Counted from the stretch's first letter, positions 6,533-64,000 are shown. The stretch: DNA of 64,000 nt from Blasia pusilla (GCA_050084515.1 CM114271.1:4836001-4900000), one strand, 5' to 3'. Numbers and translations are program-made. Notes: generated by a model not told the origin, from the sequence alone.

Positions 6533-6725
6533 GGAGGAGGAGGAGGAGGAGGAGGAGGAGGAGGAGGAGGAGGAGGAGGAGAAGAAGAAGAAGAAGAAGA
6601 AGAAGAAGAAGCAGAAGAAGAAGGAGGAGGAGGAGGAGGAGGAGTAGAAGAAGAAGAAGAAGAAGAAGAAGAAGAAGAAGAAGAAGAAGAAGAAGAAAAA
6701 GGAGGAGGAGGAGGAGAAGAAGAAG
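6533..6725 (+). repeat. Compound (GAG)n/(AAG)n purine microsatellite just upstream of the TAF15-like ATG
   Basis: About 190 nt of nearly pure A/G trinucleotide repeats with only two pyrimidine interruptions. Confidence 0.97.
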
Positions 6726-18500: not shown

Positions 18501-21500
18501 TGCTGCACTGGTAAGTAATGTCTATTGGGGATCCCAATCAGGTAAAGTAGATGGTGTGGTGAAGAGTTTCTTGGTTGACACTTGGAAGCTCCACACAAAC
18601 ACGTTGTTTGGTGTCACAACGTGTTTGTGTGGAGAGTGTCTCCCTCCTCTCATATGGTATCTTCTTCACTTGCTTCTCTCTCTCCACCCATCCCAGTCTC
18701 AAGCACCGTCCAACCAGGGCGCGGGGTCTATGGTCGCAAGGCTACGACAGGCACTACTTAATGAGTACAGTCTCTCTCAACACGTACATGTGGATCCCAA
18801 GCACATTTCATTGCATTCATTCCCATCACAGCAGAAGAAAAGCGTCCAACCTCAGAATCTAGTATCCGGCAGCTAAGTAGATGAAGTGAGTGAGATTCTT
18901 ACTGTAGAAACATCACTGGCAATAAGATGTCCAGAGAGTAGACCACCAAGCACACGAATTGAGGTCTCAAAGACTGACACGGTTTTGTTCTGCACAAGCC
19001 AAAAAAAATTTATCATGCATCCCACAGGAGTTAAAAGTCAGCAGAAAGGCATGCCCTTAATGTTGGGAGATGCTGTAAGAACATAGTAGCTTGGAGTTTA
19101 CTATATGGAATAGTAACTTATAGAATTACTGTAGTAACTCAGTGTTTTACACTTAGTAAATAGTAATTGGTTGTTACCATAGGATTACTATGGGCGGCAG
19201 ACCCTAATCCTAAAACCTAAAACTTAATCTTTTGGCTGGATATAACCCCTTCTGGGTGCCCTGCGAATTTACATTCTCTCACCCCTTTTCGTACAGAACT
19301 CTCTGATTGAGCAGCACTGAGTGTGGTTTGCTTACCTGAGAGGAGTGTGTTCTTCTGACCTTAGTAGTGCAGTGGGCTTCTGCTAACAGACTGAGTGGTC
19401 TGCTGACCTGAGGGGTTCTGTTAGTCTTGTGGTGCAAGGTGTCTAGTACTACTAACCTGAGTGGTTGCTATTGAGATGTCTACTACTACTAACCTGAGTA
19501 GTGGTTGTTGCACTAAGTGTCCTTGTGAATGCTAGGTAGTCTGGTGGTACAGGTTGTCTAGTACTTTTCTCTACAATCTAACCACTCAGGTTAGATTGTA
19601 GAGACCTATGACAACAGGTGGTTGACAGGACCACTGCCACAGGTGCTCGAAACAAAACACAACAGCTGTAGGACCATTCAAAAGTGAGCCTACAAATTGT
19701 AATCAGTTTAGTGATCGACAACTGAAGCCATCACTGTGGGCAACCTCTTGAGAAATTAATGCTACGTCTCAAGAAAGGCTAGTGGCGAAGGGAGAAAGTG
19801 GAAGAAAGTAGAACACCTAAAACCCACAGGCAAATGACAGATTCATACCTTATCAAATCGAAGATTTTTTCCGAGCCAGGTCACAGCATCACTGAACCGA
19901 GCATGATCACCAAGAAGTGCTAGCATGTCCAATGCATCCACCTGGAAACAAACCAGTGTTCTTGCTGTAAAAACATAGTAACTTGGAGTTTACTATAGTG
20001 AAAAGTAACTCTGAGAATTATTATAGTACTTTAGTGTTTAACCACAGTAAATAGTAATTTCTTCTTACTATAGATTTACCTCAGTAATTCTGAGAATTAC
20101 TATAGGCGGCAAGCCCTAACCCTAAAACCTAGAAACTCATCCTCTTGGCTATATATAACCCCTTGAGGGTGCCCTGCGAAACTACATTCTCTTACACCTT
20201 TTCATACACAACTCTCTGATCTGAGGAGCTGATTGAGCAGCACTGAGTGTGCTTTGCTTACCTGAGTGGATTGTGCTTCTGACCTCAGTACTTTAGCACA
20301 CTGAACTACTACTAGACACCTTGCATCACAAGACCATGTAGTTCAGTGTGCTTCTACTTACAGACTGAGGTCTGCTGACCTCAGGGGTTCAGTGAGTCTT
20401 GTGTTTGCAAGGTGTCTAGTAGTACTAACCTGAGTGGTTGCTATTGTACTCAGTGTGCTTATGAATGCTAGGTAGTTTGGTGGTACAGGTTGTCTAGTGC
20501 TTTCCTCTACAAACTAACCTGAGTGGTTGCTATTACACTAAGTGTGCTTGTAAGAGCTAGGTTGTAGAGAAACTCTGATATTCTAAAAGTTCTTAGTATT
20601 TTTCAAGACTTAAAAACCAATCCTTGCGCAAGGAAATGCCCATCTCTATCTGCTCAAAGTTGTTCACATCTATGAGTAAAACAGATAGAGCAAAGGGATG
20701 ACATCTGTTAGAAAAATGTGAGATAATACTGACCAGGTAGCCCTTTATAACCTGCATCCCCTAATGCATGACCAAAACTCAAACGCTCATTCCGTTGACT
20801 GCACTGATAAAACAAAGCGCCTTCTACTGCATGAGAAGAACCCCTTTGCTTGGGTGCACTGCTACTTTCTGCCCTAAACGATTGAAGCCGCGGTCAAAGG
20901 AGGAAACCCATGGGCACACCCGATAAGGGAGTGGTCATTCAGACCCACCCAAGGGATCTACAAAATGGGCCAGTCTCATGGCCATGATCACTTACCAGTG
21001 TCAAAGTGTACTCGCCCAAAGAGTCTTCACCAGAACAGCTCAAAGGCCGCAATTCATCTAAAGGAAAAGCGTGCAGCATGTAGTTGTCAAACGCATGGTA
21101 GAACATCTCCCGTACCTGCATCAATCCAGTTCAAATTCAGATGGATTTCACCACTCCCAGCAAAGTCCCTGAAGAGGCACAATGCACGAATAGAGGACTG
21201 GAGATCCCATCCAATAAAAAAAACAAGTGGGGCTCAAAGAGCCAACCAGGTCCAGGGCCACAACCAGCACGACTGAAAAGAAAAAGGGGGACCCCTCAAC
21301 AAGATAACTTCACCAACAGCAGAATACACAAGGAATGATTGAGTGAACTGATGTTTTGTCCTCGGGAACCAAGATGGCCATTGGACTTTAATCACAGTAC
21401 TTGTAGCACCAATGCATGCCAGCTCAGACAAGACAAGTGATCACAAAAGAAGTCAGTGCTTTCCCAAGAAGCTGACTGTTCCAAATGTTCAACTCCGGCA

Positions 21501-49715: not shown

Positions 49716-52700
49716 CTATTGCCCTGACCGCCGCTTCCTCACAGAGTCCTGTATACAATACAAAGACTGAGTTTCTTCCCAGGTGACAAGATTCCCCCAC
49801 AATTCAATAATCTGCTCAAACAAAGATTACTGGAAACACAAGGAAGTCTCTTACAAGCACAATCAGCTATGCCCATCAACAACACACTCTTGCTATAAAT
49901 CCACTCCAGAACTAAGAAAAATTCAGAGTCTCAGCTTCATGAAAGGTGCATGTGACAAACCCGTCCGGCAGACATTGCTATCCGACTCCTCCTCTTGGGC
50001 ACTTCAGTGCGCTTCTCTGCAGCTGCAAGTTTCCTCAAGCTTGCTCTGTAGAGTAACAGTGTTCTCCCAATCTTTCCCACAGTCTGCCCTCCAGTTTCCT
50101 CCTCCAATTGTGATACAATTGCAGGCATTTCATCTGGGCAGTTCTCCAGTACTTTCACCTGATTTCAAAGGAAAATTACCAAATGTCAGAAAACGCACAT
50201 GGTACAGATCATCAGTACCGATTTCATAGGGAACTTCTCAGACGTTAAAAGAGAGCATATGATAGGGTTATCCAGTCCTATATCTTGTTTAAAAGCAAAA
50301 CTATCAGATGTCACAAAATACACACGGTACAGACAGGGCATGTGATAACAACTGTATGTTATCTAATTTCCTCCTGTAAAAGTTAAAACCTTACCTTTAT
50401 TATCTCATTAGCCTCCAAGGCATCACTAATTGAATTAACAACAGATGCACTCACCCCAAGCTTCCCAACCTACGGTCCAACATACGAATCCTTGAGTTAG
50501 GAGTCACACATACAATCTGAAGTCCATCATGGCGGTAGTACTCATAAAGCTGACACTGAACTCAAGTTAGACTGGATTTAATGCATCTCATCTCTTGTAA
50601 TAGTAGGTTACCTGCAATAGAGTAGCTTTAACTTCTCAGCCAGACTAACAACAACCAAGCTACCCCATTTACATCATAGCTCTGAAATTGATGGGTGAAA
50701 TGCTTCCTGCTGAAAGGCAACAGACTCCTGAATATATTTCAGGGTATGTTCACCAGACACATGAAATGACCTCTATACCATAATAGTCCTCACCACTGAC
50801 ACCGATCACAATACTTACAATAATGGGAAGAAATTTCACACTGAATAGTTAACTCCTTTATCGGGATATACTAAAGGTTGTCCACTAGCATCAAGAGAAG
50901 AACACTTCCAATAGATGTATGATGATTGGAAAATAAGGCAATTCTAAAGCATATAACAGATACAGCCACAGCTTCAGACAGGTCCTTGTCTGGTATTCTC
51001 TGAAACTGACTCCAAGAGTGGGAATCAAGTTTTAGGGTCCTAGACCGCACTATTAGATGTGCACCTCCATGCAGAATAGTCTTGTTACATGGAGGTGCAC
51101 ATCCAATAGTGCCCTGTAGACATGCTTGTTTCCAGCATTACATAAAATTCCTGCCCTCTGGTAGTAAGTAGAGTATCACTGATATCTCCGCATTTCTCAT
51201 GGGATGATTACCAAGAGGAGGCCCAAGCCTTTCTGGGAAGATCTCACCAAAATTTTCCTCCTTACGTGCATGAATCTTTTCTCAGGTCATGATCGCATAA
51301 AGCTCCCATGAACCACAGCACTTCCACATCTATAACTACTCGTGGCTTGAGCTCAGATGGAGTATAACTGATTTCTCAGTACTTCTTAGAGGTTGTTCAC
51401 CAACATCAGGCCAAGGCCTTTTAGGGACAAGGTCATCATCCTTGAAATCAGCCTCCCTACAGTTAACATTAGGGAATTATTGACAACCTGGTCACCTAGG
51501 ATCCTACACTGCCCGCACGGCTTCAAAATATGCAACTACTACTGTCCTCTGATATGACACAGCAGTCCCAACCAAGTTCTGAGTACTCTTAGAGGTTTTC
51601 CATCAACATCAGCCTCTGGCCTGTTCACAACGATGTTATCCTCCTTAAAATCAATTACTCCAGCTGATGAGAAAGTTTCGAAGAACTTGCAAGAAACCTT
51701 CGCTGCCAATGCAGCACCATGATTTTCTTCTACAGCTATCTTCTGCTGGGACACAGCGGATCACTAATGACTTCTCAATACTGCTTAGAGGTTGCTCACT
51801 AATATAAGACGAAACCCTTCTCATAACACAATTGTCAACCCTACCAGTACATGACAAGCTAGAAACCTAAAATATCCACTCACCCTCATGGTCTACAAGA
51901 ACTTGCATTTCTGTTACGGCACACTCAATTGATTTCTCAGTACTTCTTAGAGGTTGTTTACCGACATCGGTCCAAGCCATTCCGGAACGAGATCGTCATC
52001 ATTGAAATCAACCTCCCTCAAAACAAAATGATCCCCTAAGAAGTATATTCAAATCTAGAAGCCTCCGATATCTACAACCTGTGAAATTCAGCACATGACA
52101 AGCTAGAAGCCTAAGATATCCACACACCTTCATTGTCTAGAAGAACTGGCACTTCTACTAGGGCACGCTTACTTGATTTCTCAGTACTTCTTAGAGGTTG
52201 TTTACCGACATCAGGTCAAGACCATTCCGGAACAAGATCATCATCATTGAAATCAATCTCCCTCTAATTTACGCGAATCCCCTAAGAAATTAATGAAAAT
52301 CTAGAAGCCTCCAATACGTGCAAAATGTGCAAACCCACATTTTGTTCTTTGCACAGAGTTGCATCAAGTTGAACTGGTTCCTCCAATATTCTTACAGATT
52401 GCACATCCATGTCAGGCGAAATCCTTTACCCAACAAAGCTAGCATTTTCAAGATTAGTGTCAATTCCTTCTAGGATACAAGATCTGCTGGAAAGATCTTT
52501 TACTCACACAGCTTAAGGGTTGGCACTGCTCTCCCTTTGTAAGGATTAAATACATTTCTACCATTACATGACAAGCTGTAGGACTCAAATATCCATGCAC
52601 CTTCACCATCTACAATAACTCACGTTTCTGCTAGGAAACAACACGTTCAATTGATTTCTCAGTACTTCTTAGAGGTTGTTTACCAACATCAGGATCAAGC

Positions 52701-54602
52701 CTTTCTGGAACATGATCATCATCCCTGAAATCAATCTCCCTCTTGCTTACAAAGATCCCTTAAGAAACGAATGAAAACCTAGAAGCGTCCCTTTTCTACA
52801 ACGCATTATAACACAGAACTCATCCTTCAAGCTCAGTTCAACAAGTTGAACTGGTTCCTCCGTGCTTACAGATTGCACCCAAATCAGGCCTTATCCTTAA
52901 CTCAGCAAAATTTGCATTTACGAGTTTAGTATCAATTAACAAGATCAACTAGAAAAATCTTGTACTCACACCGCTTTATAATTTACAACTGCTTACCATT
53001 AAAAATGCATAAAATGAATCCCAACCAGTACATGACGAGCCAGGAGCCTCAAATATCGAGGCACCTCCACGGTCTACAATAACTCACGTTTCTGCTAGGG
53101 AACTGCATATTCAATCGATTTCTCAGTACTTCTTAGAGGTTGTTTACCAACATCAGGTTCAAAGGTTTCCGGAAACAAGATCGTCATCCCCGAAATCAAA
53201 TCCACTCTTGTTTACATAGATCCCTTTAGAAATAAGTCATAAGAAGCCTGCGTTACCTACAGAACGTGAAAACCCACAACTCGTCCTTTACAAGGTTTCG
53301 GCGAGTTGAACTGGTTCCTCCGTACTTCTTACAGTGTGCATATCTACATCAGCCGGATCCTTTACAGAATAAGATTATCAGTCTTGAGATAAAATATCAA
53401 TCCCTCGATGAAAACAAGATCCGCTGGAAGGATCTTTTACTCGCACCGCTTCACACTTTACAACTACTCGCATTAGAATAGAGTGCAGCCCGTCTAAATG
53501 ATTTGTCAATACTTCAAAAATGTTATTGACTAACTTCAGGCAACAACCTTCCAGGTACCAGATCATCATCCCAGACATCAATTTCTCACCGTTACAAACC
53601 GCTTAATGAAAAGAATACTAAACTGGAAACCATGATTATTAAGGTTAACCACAGTCTGCAACAAATCTTTCACTCAGACAGGTCTCCGAGAGTTCTACTT
53701 CTTAGATATATTTTGTCGGCATCAGGCAGACGCCTCCGCGGAAAATGATCATTCGCGCTCCCGCTAGTAGACATCCCTCAGTGACTACGGGTTGAGCTAG
53801 CGAAAACTCCATATTCCAGGACCATTCAGAGTGTATGCCCTGATTCATTGTTTCTTATCTAAGATCACTTGTGGCCGACAATTGCATGTTAAACTCGACC
53901 ACATTCGTCGTATGTGAAGCAACAAGCCACTATTAATCACAGGTTCTTAGTATCTGGCCATACACGGGATCATGACACTAACATTTCACATGCTCTTATT
54001 GACTAATTAAGCAAGACATGTCAGGGAGTGACACAGTTCAAGTAACTGCGTTGAACATTGGCATAAGGTACCAATCACTACACCAACATTTCTCTAGTTG
54101 GAAGGTGATTCACGACGAAGGTCAAGTCTCAAGGAAAAATTTGACAAAGCTTCCGCCAGCACTGAAGTCTACAACGTGACAAGCGACCGATGCGAATTCA
54201 TAAAATCTTGGAGCTGAATATCAAAGGATGCAGGAAAGCAGTTACACACAGAGGCACCTGCTGCACGTTTATATCTTTCCCGAGTTGATGCGCGTACGCC
54301 CGGAGCTCCTTCTTCTCCTTGTTTCCGAGGAGCTGGAAGCCTTTGCTTCCAACATGTCCTTTGTCATCTTCGACAGCTGGAATTCCCAATGCCGCAGTCG
54401 TCACCCAGCCGTTAGCTCGCCCTGTCGAAGTCGATAGCGCTCGAGAAACGCGAGCTCTCAAAGCCACCAAGGAAGAAATCGGAATCCGAACTTCGACCCA
54501 TGGCAACCTCGCAAATGTTTGGGATTTTGTGGAACACAGTGTAGTCGGCTTCACGGCGAGATATGTGCAAAAGAACCGCTCGGTTGCTACACCCATCGCC
54601 AT
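49716..54602 (-). CDS. Single CRM-domain (CRS1/YhbY-like) RNA-binding protein with a transit-peptide-like N-terminus (~216 aa)
   Basis: Exons 54602-54258, 50469-50395, 50158-49961, 49748-49716 (last exon less certain). Spliced domain LGNKEKKELRAYAHQLGKDINVQQ|VGKLGVSASVVNSISDALEANEIIK|VKVLENCPDEMPAIVSQLEEETGGQTVGKIGRTLLLYR matches the YhbY/CRM pattern (GxxG, ELIKVK-like, IG.T.LLYR). N-terminus is S/T/R-rich and poor in acidic residues. Confidence 0.9.
51047..51112 (-). other. 25-bp-stem hairpin in CRM intron 1
   Basis: Minus strand: GCACTATTGGATGTGCACCTCCATG-16 nt-CATGGAGGTGCACATCTAATAGTGC; the only non-Watson-Crick position is a G-U pair. Confidence 0.7.
51368..51451 (-). ncRNA. U61: Box C/D snoRNA, U61/SNORD61-like (18S rRNA 2'-O-methylation guide)
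   Basis: CTGATTTC-aagg-ATGATGA (C)...CTGA (D')...AACCTCTAAGAAGTA-CTGA (D)-GAAATCAG: terminal stem plus a guide antisense to 18S ACUUCUUAGAGG. Confidence 0.8.
51929..52011 (-). ncRNA. U61: Box C/D snoRNA, U61-like
   Basis: TTGATTTC-a-ATGATGA...CCGA (variant D')...AACAACCTCTAAGAAGTA-CTGA-GAAATCAA. Confidence 0.78.
52173..52256 (-). ncRNA. U61: Box C/D snoRNA, U61-like
   Basis: TTGATTTC-a-ATGATGATGA...CTGA...AACAACCTCTAAGAAGTA-CTGA-GAAATCAA. Confidence 0.82.
52650..52735 (-). ncRNA. U61: Box C/D snoRNA, U61-like
   Basis: ATTGATTTC-aggg-ATGATGA...CTGA...AACAACCTCTAAGAAGTA-CTGA-GAAATCAAT (9-bp terminal stem). Confidence 0.85.
53115..53199 (-). ncRNA. U61: Box C/D snoRNA, U61-like (variant C box ATGACGA)
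   Basis: TTGATTTC-gggg-ATGACGA...CTGA...AACAACCTCTAAGAAGTA-CTGA-GAAATCGA. Confidence 0.7.
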
Positions 54603-56249: not shown

Positions 56250-59200
56250 AAGAAGTACCAAAGAAGGGGAACTCAAGGAGTCAAGAATGTCAAGGCCACT
56301 CTTGGCCCAGGTGAAAGAAAGAAGGTGGTGTCCCCCCTACAAGCTAAACTCACAATAGTAGAGATATCAACTATGCCTAGAAAAACATGACTACAACTAA
56401 GAGGGCCCATAGTAGTAGTATCTACTACAGTCTTAGCTCTCCTTAAAAGCCCATTGTCTTGGGCACGCATCAAAGTCATGGAAACCAACTGCCCACTGTA
56501 AAGAATCACAATAGTTAAGGATAACCCATTTCTTGTGAGTGGCAATCCTCCCATCCCCAATTAGACAGCCTGCCGTAGGCGCACCGAGAGGATTCAAACT
56601 TTGGCAATACTCATAGCGTGTCAAACAAACCATCGATGGTTGGGGGAGAACCAACCAAATTTTCATTGTTGTGGCATAAGTAAGTGGTGCGATACAGAAA
56701 ACAAAGATAAGGGAGCGAGTTCCCGACCATGAACTTGACCCCTTTCACAAGCCAAGAGCAAATACATGCCAAAACCTCCGTGGGAATATCCCCATTAGAC
56801 ATAGTGCCTCCAAAGACTGCCTCAAAGTAGGCTTCCATCAAAGAAGATTGGAACCCACAGTGACCATAAGTAACGTAAGCGGAGAAAGTGGAGAGAATGG
56901 CTCTTAGGCTAGCCTCAACTACAAAGGAATCTATCTACAAGCATGCGCCCCTGACCTCTCATCCCCAATTGGACAGCCTGCCGAAGGCGCACCGAGAGGA
57001 TTCAAACTTTGGCGATACTCATAGTGTGTCAAACAAACCATCGATGGTTGGGGGAGAACCAACCAAATTTTCATCGTTGTGGCATAGATAAGTGGTGCGG
57101 TACAGAAAACCAAGAAAAGGGGGCGAGTCCCCAACCATGAACTTGACCCCTTTCACAAGCCAAGAGCAAATACAGGCCAAAACCTCCGTGTGAATATCCC
57201 CATTAGACATAGTGTCTCCAAAGACTGCCTCAAAGTAGGCTTCCATCAAAGAAGATTGGAACCCATAGTGACCATAAGTAATGTAAGCGGAGAAAGTGGA
57301 GAGAATGGCTCTTAGGCTAGCCTCAACTACAAAGGAATCTATCTACAATCACGCACCCCTGACCTCTCATCCCCAATTGGACAGCCTGCCAAAGGCGCAC
57401 CGAGAGGATTCAAACTTTGGCGATACTCACGATGTGTCAAAAAAACCATCGATGGTTGGGGGAGAACCAACCAGATTTTCATCGTTGTGGCATAGGTAAG
57501 TGGCGCGATACAGAAAAGCAAGATAAGGGAGCGAGTCCCCGACCATGAACCTAACTCCTTTCACAAGCCAAGAGCAAATATAGACCAAAACCTCCGTGGG
57601 AATATCCCCATTCGACATAGTGCCTCAAAAGACTGCCTCAAAGTAGGCTTCGTTTAAAGAAGATTGGAACCCACAATGACCATAAGTAACGTAAGCAGAG
57701 AAAGTGGAGAGGGAATCTATCTACAAGCACGCACCCCTGACCATGGGGCACTCTAAGGAGTTGCGTCCTAGTAGATCCTCAAACACCTATAGGATCTTCC
57801 TATCAAAAGATCTAAGGAGGGTTGAGAGTTTACTAGATATCCATATACTTCTAGTGAGATAACTTGGACATCAAGGAAAACAAGAGAAAATATCGTAAGC
57901 AACTTAGGGATCACCAATTCTTATAAAATCATTGATGTGGAGCATATCCTTAGAAAGGGTGTCGCCACAAAACTTAAGAAAAAATCTTGGCTCCCACTTA
58001 GGACTTTAAAGATGACCTCTGACACATATCATGAATCCATCGTGTTAATGAAGATCAATGGGTTGGCATGATGGAGACTATCTTGCACTTTCCCATCTTC
58101 ACCGCTAGGCTAATATGTGCCAACTCAATAGTAAAGTGTTGGAATACATGGAAAACTAGATCTCTAGGGCCAACAATATAAGTATCATTTTCCGATGAGC
58201 ATGAGGGGAAAATGCAACCTGGGAAAGCTTCCACCATAAGGAGAACCACTCGATAATAAGCCAAAGGAAAAAAAAAAAAGTACCACCTATGGGATCATCT
58301 TGCAATTGCTAAGTATTGGTGGTGGACTTCAACATTGTGACCTTCTCCTCAAGCTAACCGTGATTGAAATAAAGGGTCTAAGGGGTCCCATGAAAAGCTT
58401 ATACGAAGGGAATAAGGCTCGAAATGGGTTTACTTGTGTTTCTCAATATCACAAGCAAGATAGCTGCTTGTGATATTGAGTCATTCCCCACATCCACTTG
58501 GACAACCACCCACTCAAGACATCGAGACATGCCCTCAAACCTAATTTGACTATCTCTTAGTCATGCCCTCAAACCTAATTTGACTATCTCTTAGTCAATT
58601 GGCGTGGCAACCCCAAATTAATGCAGATTATAGTATGACTAGAAAGCCTAATTGAATTGCAAAGCAATATTCTGATTCACAAATAGTGATAGCACTTCAT
58701 CTTTACATGGCTATCAGATGAATCCCTCCACCCTCCTTCGACAATGCCAAAAGTTGCCATGGCCCCAAGACATGGACCATTGATACCGGTACTCCTCCCT
58801 AAGCTAGATGAGAGGCAACTTGGAGCAACTAGGAAAATCCACTAATAGAGTCCTCAAGAGGAAAGAAATCACGAAGATGTTCGTACATTTTACTTAACAA
58901 AGACTCGATTACAAACTTAGTGCTCGTGCAAAGAGGAATGGGTTGAGGAAAAAAACCATATGGGGTTGGAAGTCATACAAAAAAACTATAATGTTGACCA
59001 TTGGGTGAGGATGTAGCCTCTTGAGAGTATAAAGAGTAAAAATTGTTGAAAGCGCCATGCCAATAAGATGAATAGTGCAATCACAACTTGTGAGTACTCA
59101 CATGCGTCCAAGTATCCTACTTTGTTACAACCTGGCTACTACAAGATCATCCGGAGAAAACCAAGTCAAGCGCTATCTTATGCGTATGCCACAAACTTGC
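56250..59200 (-). mobile_element. Degenerate CRE-like (restriction-like endonuclease) non-LTR retrotransposon
   Basis: Decayed motifs in order on the minus strand: HVLGPWQLLALSKEGGGIHLIA (cf. LLAL.K..GGVRPIA), H*FGVATP...GLRACLDV (cf. QFGV..GG.E), QDDPIGG (QGDPLG), NDTYIVG...VFQHFTIELAHISLAVKMGKC (RT 5-6), then IWLVLPQP...YEYCQSLNPLGAP..GC..GDGRIATH (CCHC knuckle-like) and a possible RLE segment. Confidence 0.7.
56545..57745. repeat. Internal 408-bp tandem triplication
   Basis: Near-identical ORF-track peptides offset by 408 (56888/57296; 56611/57019/57427). Confidence 0.95.
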
Positions 59201-60900: not shown

Positions 60901-62859
60901 ACGGGGGACAGCAGCAGAGGGTATCGTATAGTGGGGCAATGATGTTCGCGAGTGTATCGCCGACGTCTAAATAGCAAGTGTCGGCAAAGTCAAGAAGAGA
61001 AAGAGAAGGTTTGGGAACAGTAGGCGCCATGAGAGGGGCTAGTGAGGGTTAGGTCATAATCGCCTCAATTTAGGGTAAGGTCGCGCAGGGGACGAGTCAG
61101 GTCAGACAATGAAATCGCGGCCATGAGGACCAAGGCGCATAGGGTGGCATGCGCGCGTTGAAGCTCCAGGGACGAGTTTGGAGGGACTTTGGATTCGGGC
61201 CGCATAGGGCAGCGTCCCGACTTGCCAAGGAGGGAGACATGTGGTAGAGACTCGGGAGCGTTTAGCCTGGCCAGCCACATAGGGTGGCGTGCGTGAAGAG
61301 AGTGAGTTTATGATGGAAGGGAGGTACGGGCCACGGGTTGAAGGAGGAGCCATTAAGGCTCCGGGGTCTTAGGGGAGGTACATTCATACGTGCCAAGTAA
61401 ATGAAAATTCAAGAGTGCGGGAGGGGAGATTACGGGAAGGAAGCAAAAGGAAGAGGAGCCAGGGAGGGCCAGGGAGGGCTCCTCTAGGAAAGAAGGAGCA
61501 GCGGGCCGGGTCCGGGGTGTTTTTTCGTGACAACGGGTACATTTCCGGTCCCTACAAAATCGAGCGACAATTTTTGAAGATTTCGTCATTCCATCCGGTT
61601 AAACAGATACGAATACAAGGACACCCTCCCTAAACCCTCGGTTTTTGGCCGGTAAGTGACAATCTGAATCGGAAATTCTCAAATTCTTCCGGCCAGCTCA
61701 ACAAGTAACCCCGGTTCTCCCCGGACATTGGGCCGGGTGTAAGCGGTGCATAGGGAGGCGTGGAGGCTCTCATTAAAGCGGGTCCAAGGGAACGTGAGCT
61801 ACATATGGCAACGTGTCCATGTTCGGGAGGGCATGGCAAGTGCAACATGAGTAAGAGGAGGGAGGGAGAGCCCTCCGTAAAGAACCGTGCTGGCGGGAGA
61901 AGAGGGTAAGGAGTTGACGGAGTTAGGAAAGAGTTTGAGAAGACGTGAAGGGAGATTTGAACGAGTTTGTGGTTGATCGAGCTACATAGTTGAGCGACAT
62001 ATGGGGTGTAGGGGAGCAGGTCAAGTTGCCTACGTGGTTGAATAACATATGGGGTTGGAGAACGGATGTGGTAGGCAGGCTTACCAAGTCAAAGGTGACA
62101 TTGTAGACGTGCTTTCTCTTTGAGTGTTTGATGTGGTAATTTTGGGTTACGTAGTAGGAGAGATTTTTGGTGCCTTGGTATTTCCAAGCACGGATCACGA
62201 TTTGTGCGGGAGTGTGATTTGCGGCTCCTAGAGAGTTTTTGGGATGTGTTTTTGCAAGCATGGATGGGATTCACAATGGGATTTGCATGTTCAATTTGAC
62301 TACGAGCGGGAGGGATGATTTACACAGATAGTTTGCAGAGAGAGTTGGGATGGAGTGTTACTATGTTGATGCCGGCAGATAGTCTACATCCGGTGATGGG
62401 AGGTTCGACATGTTGGTCGAGGAGAGTGTTGTGCCGCGGAGGTTGCCACATCACATGGAGGAGTGAGTGTTGACGGTGTTGTAGGTTGGAGGGCGTGATG
62501 AGGTTACCCATTTGAGTCCCTTTTCCCGCACTTATCTTGTGTCATTGAGGGTTTTGGATCAGGTAGTAGCTGGTGTTAGATGGTTGCGGCGATGGTGACG
62601 AGTGTAGACTCCTTTCATGTGTAGCATGTTGGTGGATATACGACGGTTGCTGAATAGGGGTCACGTGTATGACCCGAGAGTGTCAGTTTTTATGTGAGTT
62701 AAGTGGGAGGCTCATAGTGAGCCCGAGTGTTGAGTGTGCGTGAGGCCGCGTGTGTCATCATGGGATTACGATTAGCGTAGGTGAGTTAGTGAGGAGTGTG
62801 GGAGACTCTTGGTGAGTCTAAGTTCTTGAGCGGGTGAGACATGGTTGTCATCACGGCGT

Positions 62860-64000
62860 TCTTCCAGTGAACCACCGCGAACAACTCTTTCTTATGAGTG
62901 GGCCATCTCCTTTCGGTGTCGCTAAGCTTCTTGCTCTCGTATGCTATAAGTCTCGCTTTTAGCACCAACATTCCTACAATCGCGAAATTACTAGCATCAG
63001 TGTGCACCTTGAACGGTTGGTCAAACTCCGGAAACTTCAGAAGTGGTTCCTGAGAGAGGATCTCCTTGACTCAATTCAACGCTTTATCCACTTCCTTGGT
63101 CCATGTTGTGTTGTCAAACTTGGCGGTCCAATCTGTGAGAGGTTTCACTATTCTCGAAAAGCTCTTCACATATGTCCGGTGAAACCGGATCGCTCTGATG
63201 AACCTCCTCATCCCCTTCACAATGGAAGGCGGTTCCCATTCGGCAATGCGCTTACCTTCCCCATATCTGGACTTACTCCGTATGCACTAACCACATGTCC
63301 CAAGAACTTGATCTTTGTCAAAACAAACTCATATCGCATACACGTTATCCGCATTCGCATACATCTTATTTGCCTTGAGTTTCTCAAACACCATCTTCAA
63401 ATATTGATCGTGCTCCTCTAGTATTCTCAAATAGATGAGTATATCATCTATATAGATGATCACAAACTCGTCCGTATCCTTATGAAAAGATGGAGTTCAT
63501 CAAAGTGGTGAACGTAGGAGGAGCATTAGAAAGACCAAAAACCATTACCACAAACTCGAACGAACTGTATCTCGTCCTACACGGAGTCTTCTCTACATTC
63601 GCTTCGGCAATCCGAACCTGATAATATCTTGATTTCACGTCAATCCGATTGAAATACTAGGCACCTGACAATCAATCAAAGAGTTCATCTATCCTCGGAA
63701 GAGGATAGTTGTTCCTTATGGTCACTTTATTCAGCGCTCGGTAATCAACACAGAGTCTCAACTTTCCATCTTTCTTTTTCACGAAGAGAACGGGCACTCC
63801 ATAAGGTGACTTGTTAGTTCGGATGTAACCCCTTTCTAGGAGTTCACCCAACTATTTCCTTAACTCAGCAAATTCTTTTTGATTCAACCTATATGGTGCC
63901 TTTGAAGATGGTTGAGATCTGGGCATCACCTCTATCTTATGATCAACCACCCTATGTGATGGCAACTCAGTCGGAAGCTCCTTAGTCAATACATATCCAA
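62860..64000 (-). mobile_element. Ty3/gypsy pol relic (reverse transcriptase and truncated RNase H); continues past the window end
   Basis: HKIEV...APYRL...[64 protein letters not shown]...IAYESKKLSDTERRWPTHKKELFAVVH. In-frame stops are present. Confidence 0.93.

Follow-up and report, generated by a model that had tools for sequence, protein, structure and literature searches.

The first intron of a gene for a single-CRM-domain protein, in a 64,000-nt stretch of the Blasia pusilla genome (GCA_050084515.1, CM114271.1:4836001-4900000; hereafter, the window), carries a tandemly repeated element, which raises the question of whether the intron holds an ordinary satellite, a dead gene cluster or a set of genes that could still function. 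An initial annotation, made by a model from the sequence alone, had proposed about 13 copies, some five of them intact, of one gene for a small nucleolar RNA (snoRNA) of the box C/D class and the U61/SNORD61 type, all within this single intron and on the host transcript strand. We could align 13 units, five of them intact and all on the minus strand of intron 1; the observation was confirmed, and the interpretation placed on it is supported. The array is likely to consist of paralogous copies of one box C/D snoRNA, which corresponds in the liverwort lineage to plant U61 and animal SNORD61, clustered within the intron in the sense of the host; repeated local tandem duplication would have made the cluster, which would be evolving by birth and death.

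Thirteen homologous units, five intact and eight decayed

The units lie between positions 51177 and 53777, and each is made up of a box C/D body of 83-85 nt and a spacer of ~105-160 nt; all 13 line up over ~100 nt (alignment A1). The unit of ~85 nt first given for the repeat holds for the body but not for the repeat period, which is ~190-245 nt, with double units of 383-478 nt. In a repeat search, 10 units formed one family with a start-to-start spacing of 162-478 nt, and the remaining three (B-type: u03B, u05B and u07B) were joined to it via a repeat of ~470 nt, each repeat consisting of one A-type and one B-type unit. A profile built from the five intact copies only recovered six of the eight other units at an expectation value (E) of at most 7e-5 and u07B more weakly (Table 1), while u05B, which this profile missed, is tied to the array through the alignment of the higher-order repeat. 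With a profile of all 13 units, no further copy was found at E < 1 in the whole 64 kb. Tandem Repeats Finder did not report the array, because the copies are too diverged and their spacing is too irregular, so the prediction that it would be masked as a minisatellite does not hold for that tool.

The clustering is also apparent from a single motif. The exact 13-mer CCTCTAAGAAGTA occurs five times, always on the minus strand and within the array; when up to two mismatches are allowed, the count for the window rises to 11, where 1.96 would be expected; eight of the 11 matches lie in the array on the minus strand, and none of 100 shuffles reached 11. Along two adjacent blocks of ~470 nt, identity peaks at 97% over the guide, box D and stem and is 43-85% in the other 30-column segments. 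Units u08 and u09, which are 92.9% identical to each other, are part of a 244-nt duplication. A likely history would begin with an early amplification of a unit of ~190 nt, followed by the triplication of a ~470-nt block, which would have held one good and one already-dead unit, and by the 244-nt duplication that would have given rise to u08 and u09.

Per-unit feature scores were sharply bimodal and separated five intact copies (u04, u06, u08, u09 and u12) from eight relics. All five intact copies have a terminal stem with 8 of 8 base pairs (TTGATTTC...GAAATCAA), GATGA exactly 3 nt past the stem, a guide matching at 13 of 13 positions, and CTGA as box D, abutting the 3′ stem arm. A kink-turn (K-turn) has, next to its stem, a bulge of 3 nt and then the sheared G-A pairs. 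Among the relics, box D is lost in all eight (CGGA, TTGA, TGGA or CTCA), and box C and the stem are gone in most of them. In summary, five units keep every element needed for a C/D small nucleolar ribonucleoprotein (snoRNP), whereas eight have lost them.

The individual boxes bear out most, but not all, of what had been described for them. The exact box C, ATGATGA, is present in four of the five intact copies; in u04 the two registers give ATGACGA and GGGATGA. Read in the register compatible with a K-turn, box C is AUGAUGA in u08 and u09, AGGAUGA in u12, and GGGAUGA in u04 and u06. CTGA likewise serves as box D′ in four intact copies, the T having been lost in u09. In the terminal stem, all 40 cells are paired, compared with 17-60% of cells in slid registers, every one of which it beats. 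Two changes have occurred in this stem, a compensated U-A to C-G replacement in u12 and a U-G wobble in u04, so that the covariation noted earlier for the copies ending at 51368 and 53115 stands. The stem is seen in the minimum free energy (MFE) fold of four of the five intact copies. When the whole window was scanned crudely for C/D snoRNAs on both strands (RTGATGA, 45-130 nt, CTGA, terminal stem of at least 6 bp), array copies alone were returned.

The array lies whole, and in sense, inside intron 1 (3788 nt, GT...AG) of the host gene. The three exons that we could place line up in order with a Marchantia polymorpha protein of 223 residues (at 6-123, 123-149 and 147-213) and with a protein of Riccia sorocarpa; intron 1 falls between the residues that correspond to Q122 and V123 of the former. 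A search of 5.8 billion proteins gave three matches, all of them from liverworts, with 71-75% identity. Judged by these protein alignments, the host CRM gene is intact, with the Marchantia and Riccia proteins as its closest relatives. A plant intronic cluster is defined by at least two snoRNA genes that share the sense of the host within one intron, and here five intact copies do so.

Table 1. Exons, intron and repeat units of the host gene, in the order of transcription (positions counted from the first nucleotide of the window).
Feature	Position	Strand	Class	Score	Features
exon 1	54258..54602	-	exon	tblastn E 3.9e-19 (Marchantia/Riccia CRM proteins, residues 6-123)	ATG at 54602 through first part of CRM domain
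intron 1	50470..54257	-	intron		donor CAG/GT at 54258/54257; acceptor AG/GTT at 50470/50469; flanking exons colinear with Marchantia polymorpha CRM protein
u01	53681..53777	-	decayed relic	intact-copy profile E 6.9e-5	stem 2/8; no K-turn core; CGGA at box D position; guide 11/13
u02	53496..53592	-	relic	profile E 1.9e-11	box C kept; box D TTGA; guide 9/13
u03B	53308..53402	-	B-type relic	profile E 1.9e-7	no box C; CGGA at box D position
u04	53115..53199	-	intact, U61-like, 85 nt	Rfam snoU61 30.7 bits	stem 8/8 with one U-G wobble; GATGA; guide 13/13; box D CTGA; second-register box C ATGACGA
u05B	52848..52937	-	B-type relic		placed by alignment; no boxes; missed by intact-only profile
u06	52651..52734	-	intact, 84 nt	Rfam snoU61 34.5 bits	stem 8/8; GATGA; D′ CTGA; guide 13/13; box D CTGA; terminal stem in MFE fold
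u07B	52371..52467	-	B-type relic	intact-only profile E 0.14	
u08	52173..52256	-	intact, 84 nt, top-scoring	Rfam snoU61 36.7 bits, E 8.7e-6	AUGAUGA 1 nt past 8-bp stem; guide 13/13; box D CTGA
u09	51929..52011	-	intact, 83 nt	Rfam snoU61 34.6 bits	AUGAUGA; stem 8/8; guide 13/13; box D CTGA; D′ CCGA (T lost)
u10	51766..51857	-	relic	profile E 1e-7	guide 12/13; box D TTGA; box C lost
u11	51570..51660	-	relic	profile E 3.6e-9	guide with 1-nt deletion; box D CTCA; K-turn core GAGGA
u12	51368..51451	-	intact, 84 nt	Rfam snoU61 27.9 bits	stem 8/8, outer pair U-A to C-G; GATGA; guide 13/13; box D CTGA
u13	51177..51271	-	relic, most 3′ unit	profile E 1e-6	
exon 2	50395..50469	-	exon, 75 nt, 25 codons	74% identity to Marchantia residues 123-149	mid CRM domain
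exon 3	49961..50158	-	exon	Pfam PF01985 E 7.3e-8; 71-75% identity to Marchantia and Riccia proteins	C-terminal half of CRM domain; 3′ end not fixed

Relationship to U61, predicted 18S target and expected processing

When Rfam was searched in E-value mode, snoU61 (RF01170, placed with SNORD61 in clan CL00067) was the best family for each of the five intact copies, at 27.9-36.7 bits, and these five were the top matches and the only ones of note. Their E-values range from 8.7e-6 to 3.4e-3 on the 4-kb region and from 1.4e-4 to 0.054 on the whole window, where four lie below 0.01 and the fifth is 0.054. All five copies align over the full length of the model (positions 1-84 of 84), with identity at the guide and box D and also at AUCUUGU.CCGGA in the 5′ half. 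Since this similarity extends beyond the guide, homology is favoured over convergence on the guide.

With plant U61 (Arabidopsis AtU61/U61.1), the copies have in common the guide core CCUCUAAGAAGU adjoining box D, the similar 5′ half and the predicted target, Arabidopsis 18S Um1384; they differ in having A, and not U, just before box D and in their shorter, divergent middle region. Animal SNORD61 shares its clan with snoU61 (lower-scoring overlapping matches from the clan were set aside in the Rfam search), has the equivalent target, human 18S Um1442, and is likewise intronic. The human genome has one copy of SNORD61, located in an intron of a protein-coding gene, whereas the array brings together within one intron five copies that are intact and eight that have decayed. 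Plasmodium snoR01 (RF01583) has an identical guide and box D (CCUCUAAGAAG.UCUGA) and gave weak matches of 27.9-28.3 bits to two copies; however, the E-values are 4-5 and its AT-rich body has no other similarity, so that the resemblance supports a conserved target, as judged from the shared guide, and not membership.

The 13-nt guide is identical in all five intact copies and is the reverse complement of UACUUCUUAGAGG. Upstream of box D, it would pair with the conserved 18S ribosomal RNA (rRNA) motif (U/N)ACUUCUUAGAGG, and by the D+5 rule fibrillarin would methylate the second U of ACUUC in the ...CUUCUUAGAGG motif; counting five nucleotides upstream of box D lands on the very residue that the initial annotation had picked. 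From the identity of the guide and the D+5 rule, 2′-O-methylation is predicted at the 18S U that corresponds to Um1384 in Arabidopsis and to Um1442 in human. A RiboMeth-seq table for Arabidopsis assigns 18S U1384 to U61.1 (PMC8053127), and another Arabidopsis table assigns Um1384 to AtU61 and gives human Um1442 as the equivalent site (PMC8583080); taken with the Rfam result, these entries support the U61/SNORD61 identity first proposed. The guide also reverse-complements the motif printed for green-algal 18S in PMC8125830. In the appendices of that paper, ACTTCTTAGAGGGAC is printed in microalgal 18S rRNA genes (A and D) and a variant, GCTTCTTAGAGGGAC, in appendix E; A and G alike could pair with the guide U at the position that varies.

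Passages in PMC2875012 and PMC7671301 describe plant snoRNA clusters, independent or intronic, as polycistronic precursors that are cleaved endonucleolytically and then trimmed exonucleolytically, and because such processing has been described, we infer by analogy a similar route for the release and assembly of the snoRNAs of the array. The host precursor messenger RNA would carry the array, and Snu13/15.5K would bind the K-turn formed by boxes C and D beside the 8-bp terminal stem, after which NOP56, NOP58 and fibrillarin would assemble. Through endonucleolytic cleavage within the spacers and trimming by exonucleases as far as the protected stem, the five intact units would then be released as RNAs of 83-85 nt, and the rest of the intron, relics included, would be degraded. 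Hence, one host transcript could give up to five copies of one guide.

Constraint on the intact copies and competing readings

The best surviving alternative, which we nevertheless consider unlikely, is that all of the array is a cluster of pseudogenes, dead or dying, with a working U61 gene elsewhere and with the five intact copies being simply the youngest duplicates, undecayed so far. Eight of the 13 units are clearly dead and u08 and u09 are recent duplicates, and the Rfam scores below threshold, the non-canonical box C in three intact copies and the loss of D′ in u09, which are set out below, would all suit such a fate. Yet the intact copies are not young overall, since their pairwise identity is 77.6-92.9%. 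When the 38 functional columns (stem, GAUGA, guide and box D) were compared with the other 47, variable columns numbered 3 of 38 among the former and 23 of 47 among the latter (Fisher P 3.9e-5), and in the guide and box D not one of the 17 columns varies, against 22 of 43 non-functional columns. Counted as changes from the intact consensus, the intact copies have 3/190 at functional positions and 35/230 elsewhere (P 2.5e-7; per-copy binomial P from 2.5e-4 to 0.08), whereas the eight relics have 102/304 and 141/368, with no such bias (P 0.23). There is, therefore, a strong deficit of changes at functional positions in the intact copies and none in the relics, and by chance 38 positions would seldom stay nearly unchanged in copies whose other positions differ at 7-20%. 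The sole change in the outer stem pair is, moreover, a compensated one.

Several points weigh against a cluster of U61 genes that could still function. The constraint test is partly circular, in that the intact class was picked by the same features and the consensus was taken from the same five copies, and gene conversion could keep the 3′ halves alike. The Rfam covariance-model check proposed at the outset succeeded in E-value mode but gave no match in the whole window in gathering mode, the best score being 36.7 bits against the curated snoU61 cut-off of 55 bits, and the copies are formally not members of snoU61. In the register consistent with K-turn geometry, box C position 2 is G, not the usual U, in three of the five intact copies, and the D′ box is missing from one of them. 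The stem covariation is a single event, equalled by 96 of 500 shuffles and not significant alone. Fold energies were no better than those of shuffles (z -0.66 to +1.65), and folding gives no support; weak folding z-scores are usual for C/D snoRNAs.

Other elements were seen in the same intron. The three B-type relics have in common an 18-nt block without any change, GGAGGAACCAGTTCAACT (53297-53327, 52837-52867 and 52360-52390, in minus-strand sense), in the place that box D and the 3′ stem once took up; no invariant run of the three-way block alignment is longer, the second longest being 8, and the block has no evident function. A second snoRNA species in the B-type units was ruled out, as they have neither box C nor box D and no Rfam match. 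Upstream of each B-type unit, a conserved spacer element (53413-53468, 52938-52993 and 52476-52531) has a GTGAGTA-like motif followed by a short palindromic hairpin, AAGATC...GATCTT, and is possibly, from its sequence, a processing signal or a cryptic splice donor. Past the last relic, at a distance of about 60 nt downstream, comes a perfect inverted repeat of 27 bp around a 12-nt loop (51047-51113, both strands), which is unique in the window and has an MFE of -58.5 kcal/mol (z -7.98) in a 121-nt context; MIR394 (28.3 bits, cut-off 60) and mir-5984 (28.0 bits, cut-off 95) were ruled out for it, and a young locus for a hairpin RNA or the insertion of a foldback element could account for it.

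It is improbable that the copies are expressed but not mainly as an intron-derived 18S guide, either from a promoter of their own within the intron or with the array or its relics (including the B-type 18-nt block) regulating the splicing or expression of the host CRM gene or yielding other small RNAs. Independent promoters are known for plant snoRNA clusters, according to passages in PMC7671301, and the 18-nt invariant run and the perfect 27-bp hairpin could be taken as candidates for such functions. However, the constrained parts are exactly the guide, the boxes and the stem, a pattern that fits guide function, and the B-type units lack box C, box D and an Rfam match. The GTGAGT splice-like motifs in the spacers of u04 and u06 are absent for u08 and u09. 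As for the 18-nt block, 60% of the background columns are invariant and a run of at least 18 was reached in 236 of 20,000 column shuffles; the resulting P of ~0.012 is weak, as the block was chosen after looking.

Equally doubtful is a bolder combination, in which the array would be the main or only source of U61, kept in multiple copies by dosage selection (five guides per host transcript), while the 18-nt block of the B-type relics and the 27-bp hairpin would have been recruited as small RNAs or splicing regulators of the organelle-directed CRM host gene. If true, this would tie cytosolic ribosome modification to the expression of a factor for organellar RNA or ribosome maturation.

Finally, a chance resemblance to a snoRNA within an ordinary intronic satellite, with which the irregular spacing, the negative Tandem Repeats Finder result and the empty gathering search might agree, is close to refuted by five independent matches to one family with E down to 8.7e-6, by boxes in correct order and spacing, with the stem abutting box D and lying 3 nt from GAUGA in all five copies, by a guide identical to one conserved in plant, animal-clan and Plasmodium families, and by a motif count that no shuffle reached.

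Elsewhere in the window, a 408-nt tandem repeat (56547-57711; 2.9 copies, 93% matches) contains, on its minus strand, repeated open reading frames of ~107 amino acids with no Pfam match. A Ty3/gypsy-type pol fragment lies at 62789-63851 on the minus strand (RNase H-like, PF17919 at E 1e-17 and PF17917 at E 1.5e-13), with reverse-transcriptase-like open reading frames adjoining it. At 6533-6725, a long GGAGAA/AGA-type microsatellite in a GC-rich region gives rise to long poly-E, poly-R and poly-S reading frames. A U6 gene at 20587-20688 on the minus strand was ruled out (22.1 bits against 44, with a broken ACAGAGA region), and this match is probably a decayed fragment or due to chance.

Comparison with known snoRNA clusters and significance

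Angiosperm snoRNA clusters usually mix different snoRNAs, and compared with them the array is homogeneous and unusually long. In Chlamydomonas, many homologous clusters have arisen from small local tandem duplications. According to passages in PMC7671301, PMC2875012 and PMC5122169, the snoRNAs of plants and Chlamydomonas belong mostly to multigene families formed by duplication, are often clustered or intronic, and have decayed fragments in their clusters. The array resembles the polycistronic intronic clusters of plants and green algae both in having several snoRNA genes in one transcription unit, in host sense and inside an intron, and in its expansion by local duplication with decayed fragments alongside (PMC2875012, PMC7671301 and PMC5122169, in the passages cited). 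The initial annotation had, therefore, overstated the rarity of such an arrangement, and we regard the array as a fairly ordinary case of local gene duplication, given that the snoRNA genes of plants and algae are well known to be found duplicated, clustered and in introns.

Two comparisons mark out what is particular to it. U61 itself lies in rice and Arabidopsis in a mixed cluster with snoR14 (and U56), in an account that dates it there to the mesangiosperms (a 2016 survey, PMC5122169, in the part that treats this cluster); the array, by contrast, consists of 13 units of one RNA in one intron of a liverwort-like genome. The imprinted mammalian SNORD115 and SNORD116 arrays are similar in having many tandem copies of one box C/D snoRNA, as stated in passages of PMC2875012 and PMC2766290, but these are orphan snoRNAs, whereas the array holds a predicted canonical rRNA guide, with all its units in one intron of a protein-coding gene. 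Between the units, no conserved acceptor-donor pair of the SNORD115/SNORD116 type was found; GTGAGT-like motifs follow u04 and u06, whereas u08 and u09 have none after them. An arrangement in which each snoRNA has a mini-intron of its own, separated from the next by a short exon, was ruled out for the array, as these splice-like motifs are not conserved across units. Each copy of SNORD115 and SNORD116 sits in its own intron of a repeated non-coding host.

Among the literature matches listed, we found no earlier description of liverwort snoRNAs, although the supplementary alignments of PMC5122169 may list a bryophyte U61. The homogeneous 13-unit array, in a genome of bryophyte type, is a new instance that widens the range of lineages with a U61 and not a new kind of system, and it leaves unchanged what is known of how snoRNAs work and are organised. 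Its interest lies in three other respects. Five probable U61-type genes were missed wholly at the standard thresholds of Rfam, and, since the gathering thresholds miss all five, bryophyte snoRNAs can escape routine pipelines. With intact copies standing beside decayed ones, the array offers a compact natural experiment for asking where in a C/D snoRNA selection acts. Lastly, a bryophyte copy of U61 supports an ancient origin of the guide for Um1384/Um1442, as against the mesangiosperm dating given in the relevant part of PMC5122169.

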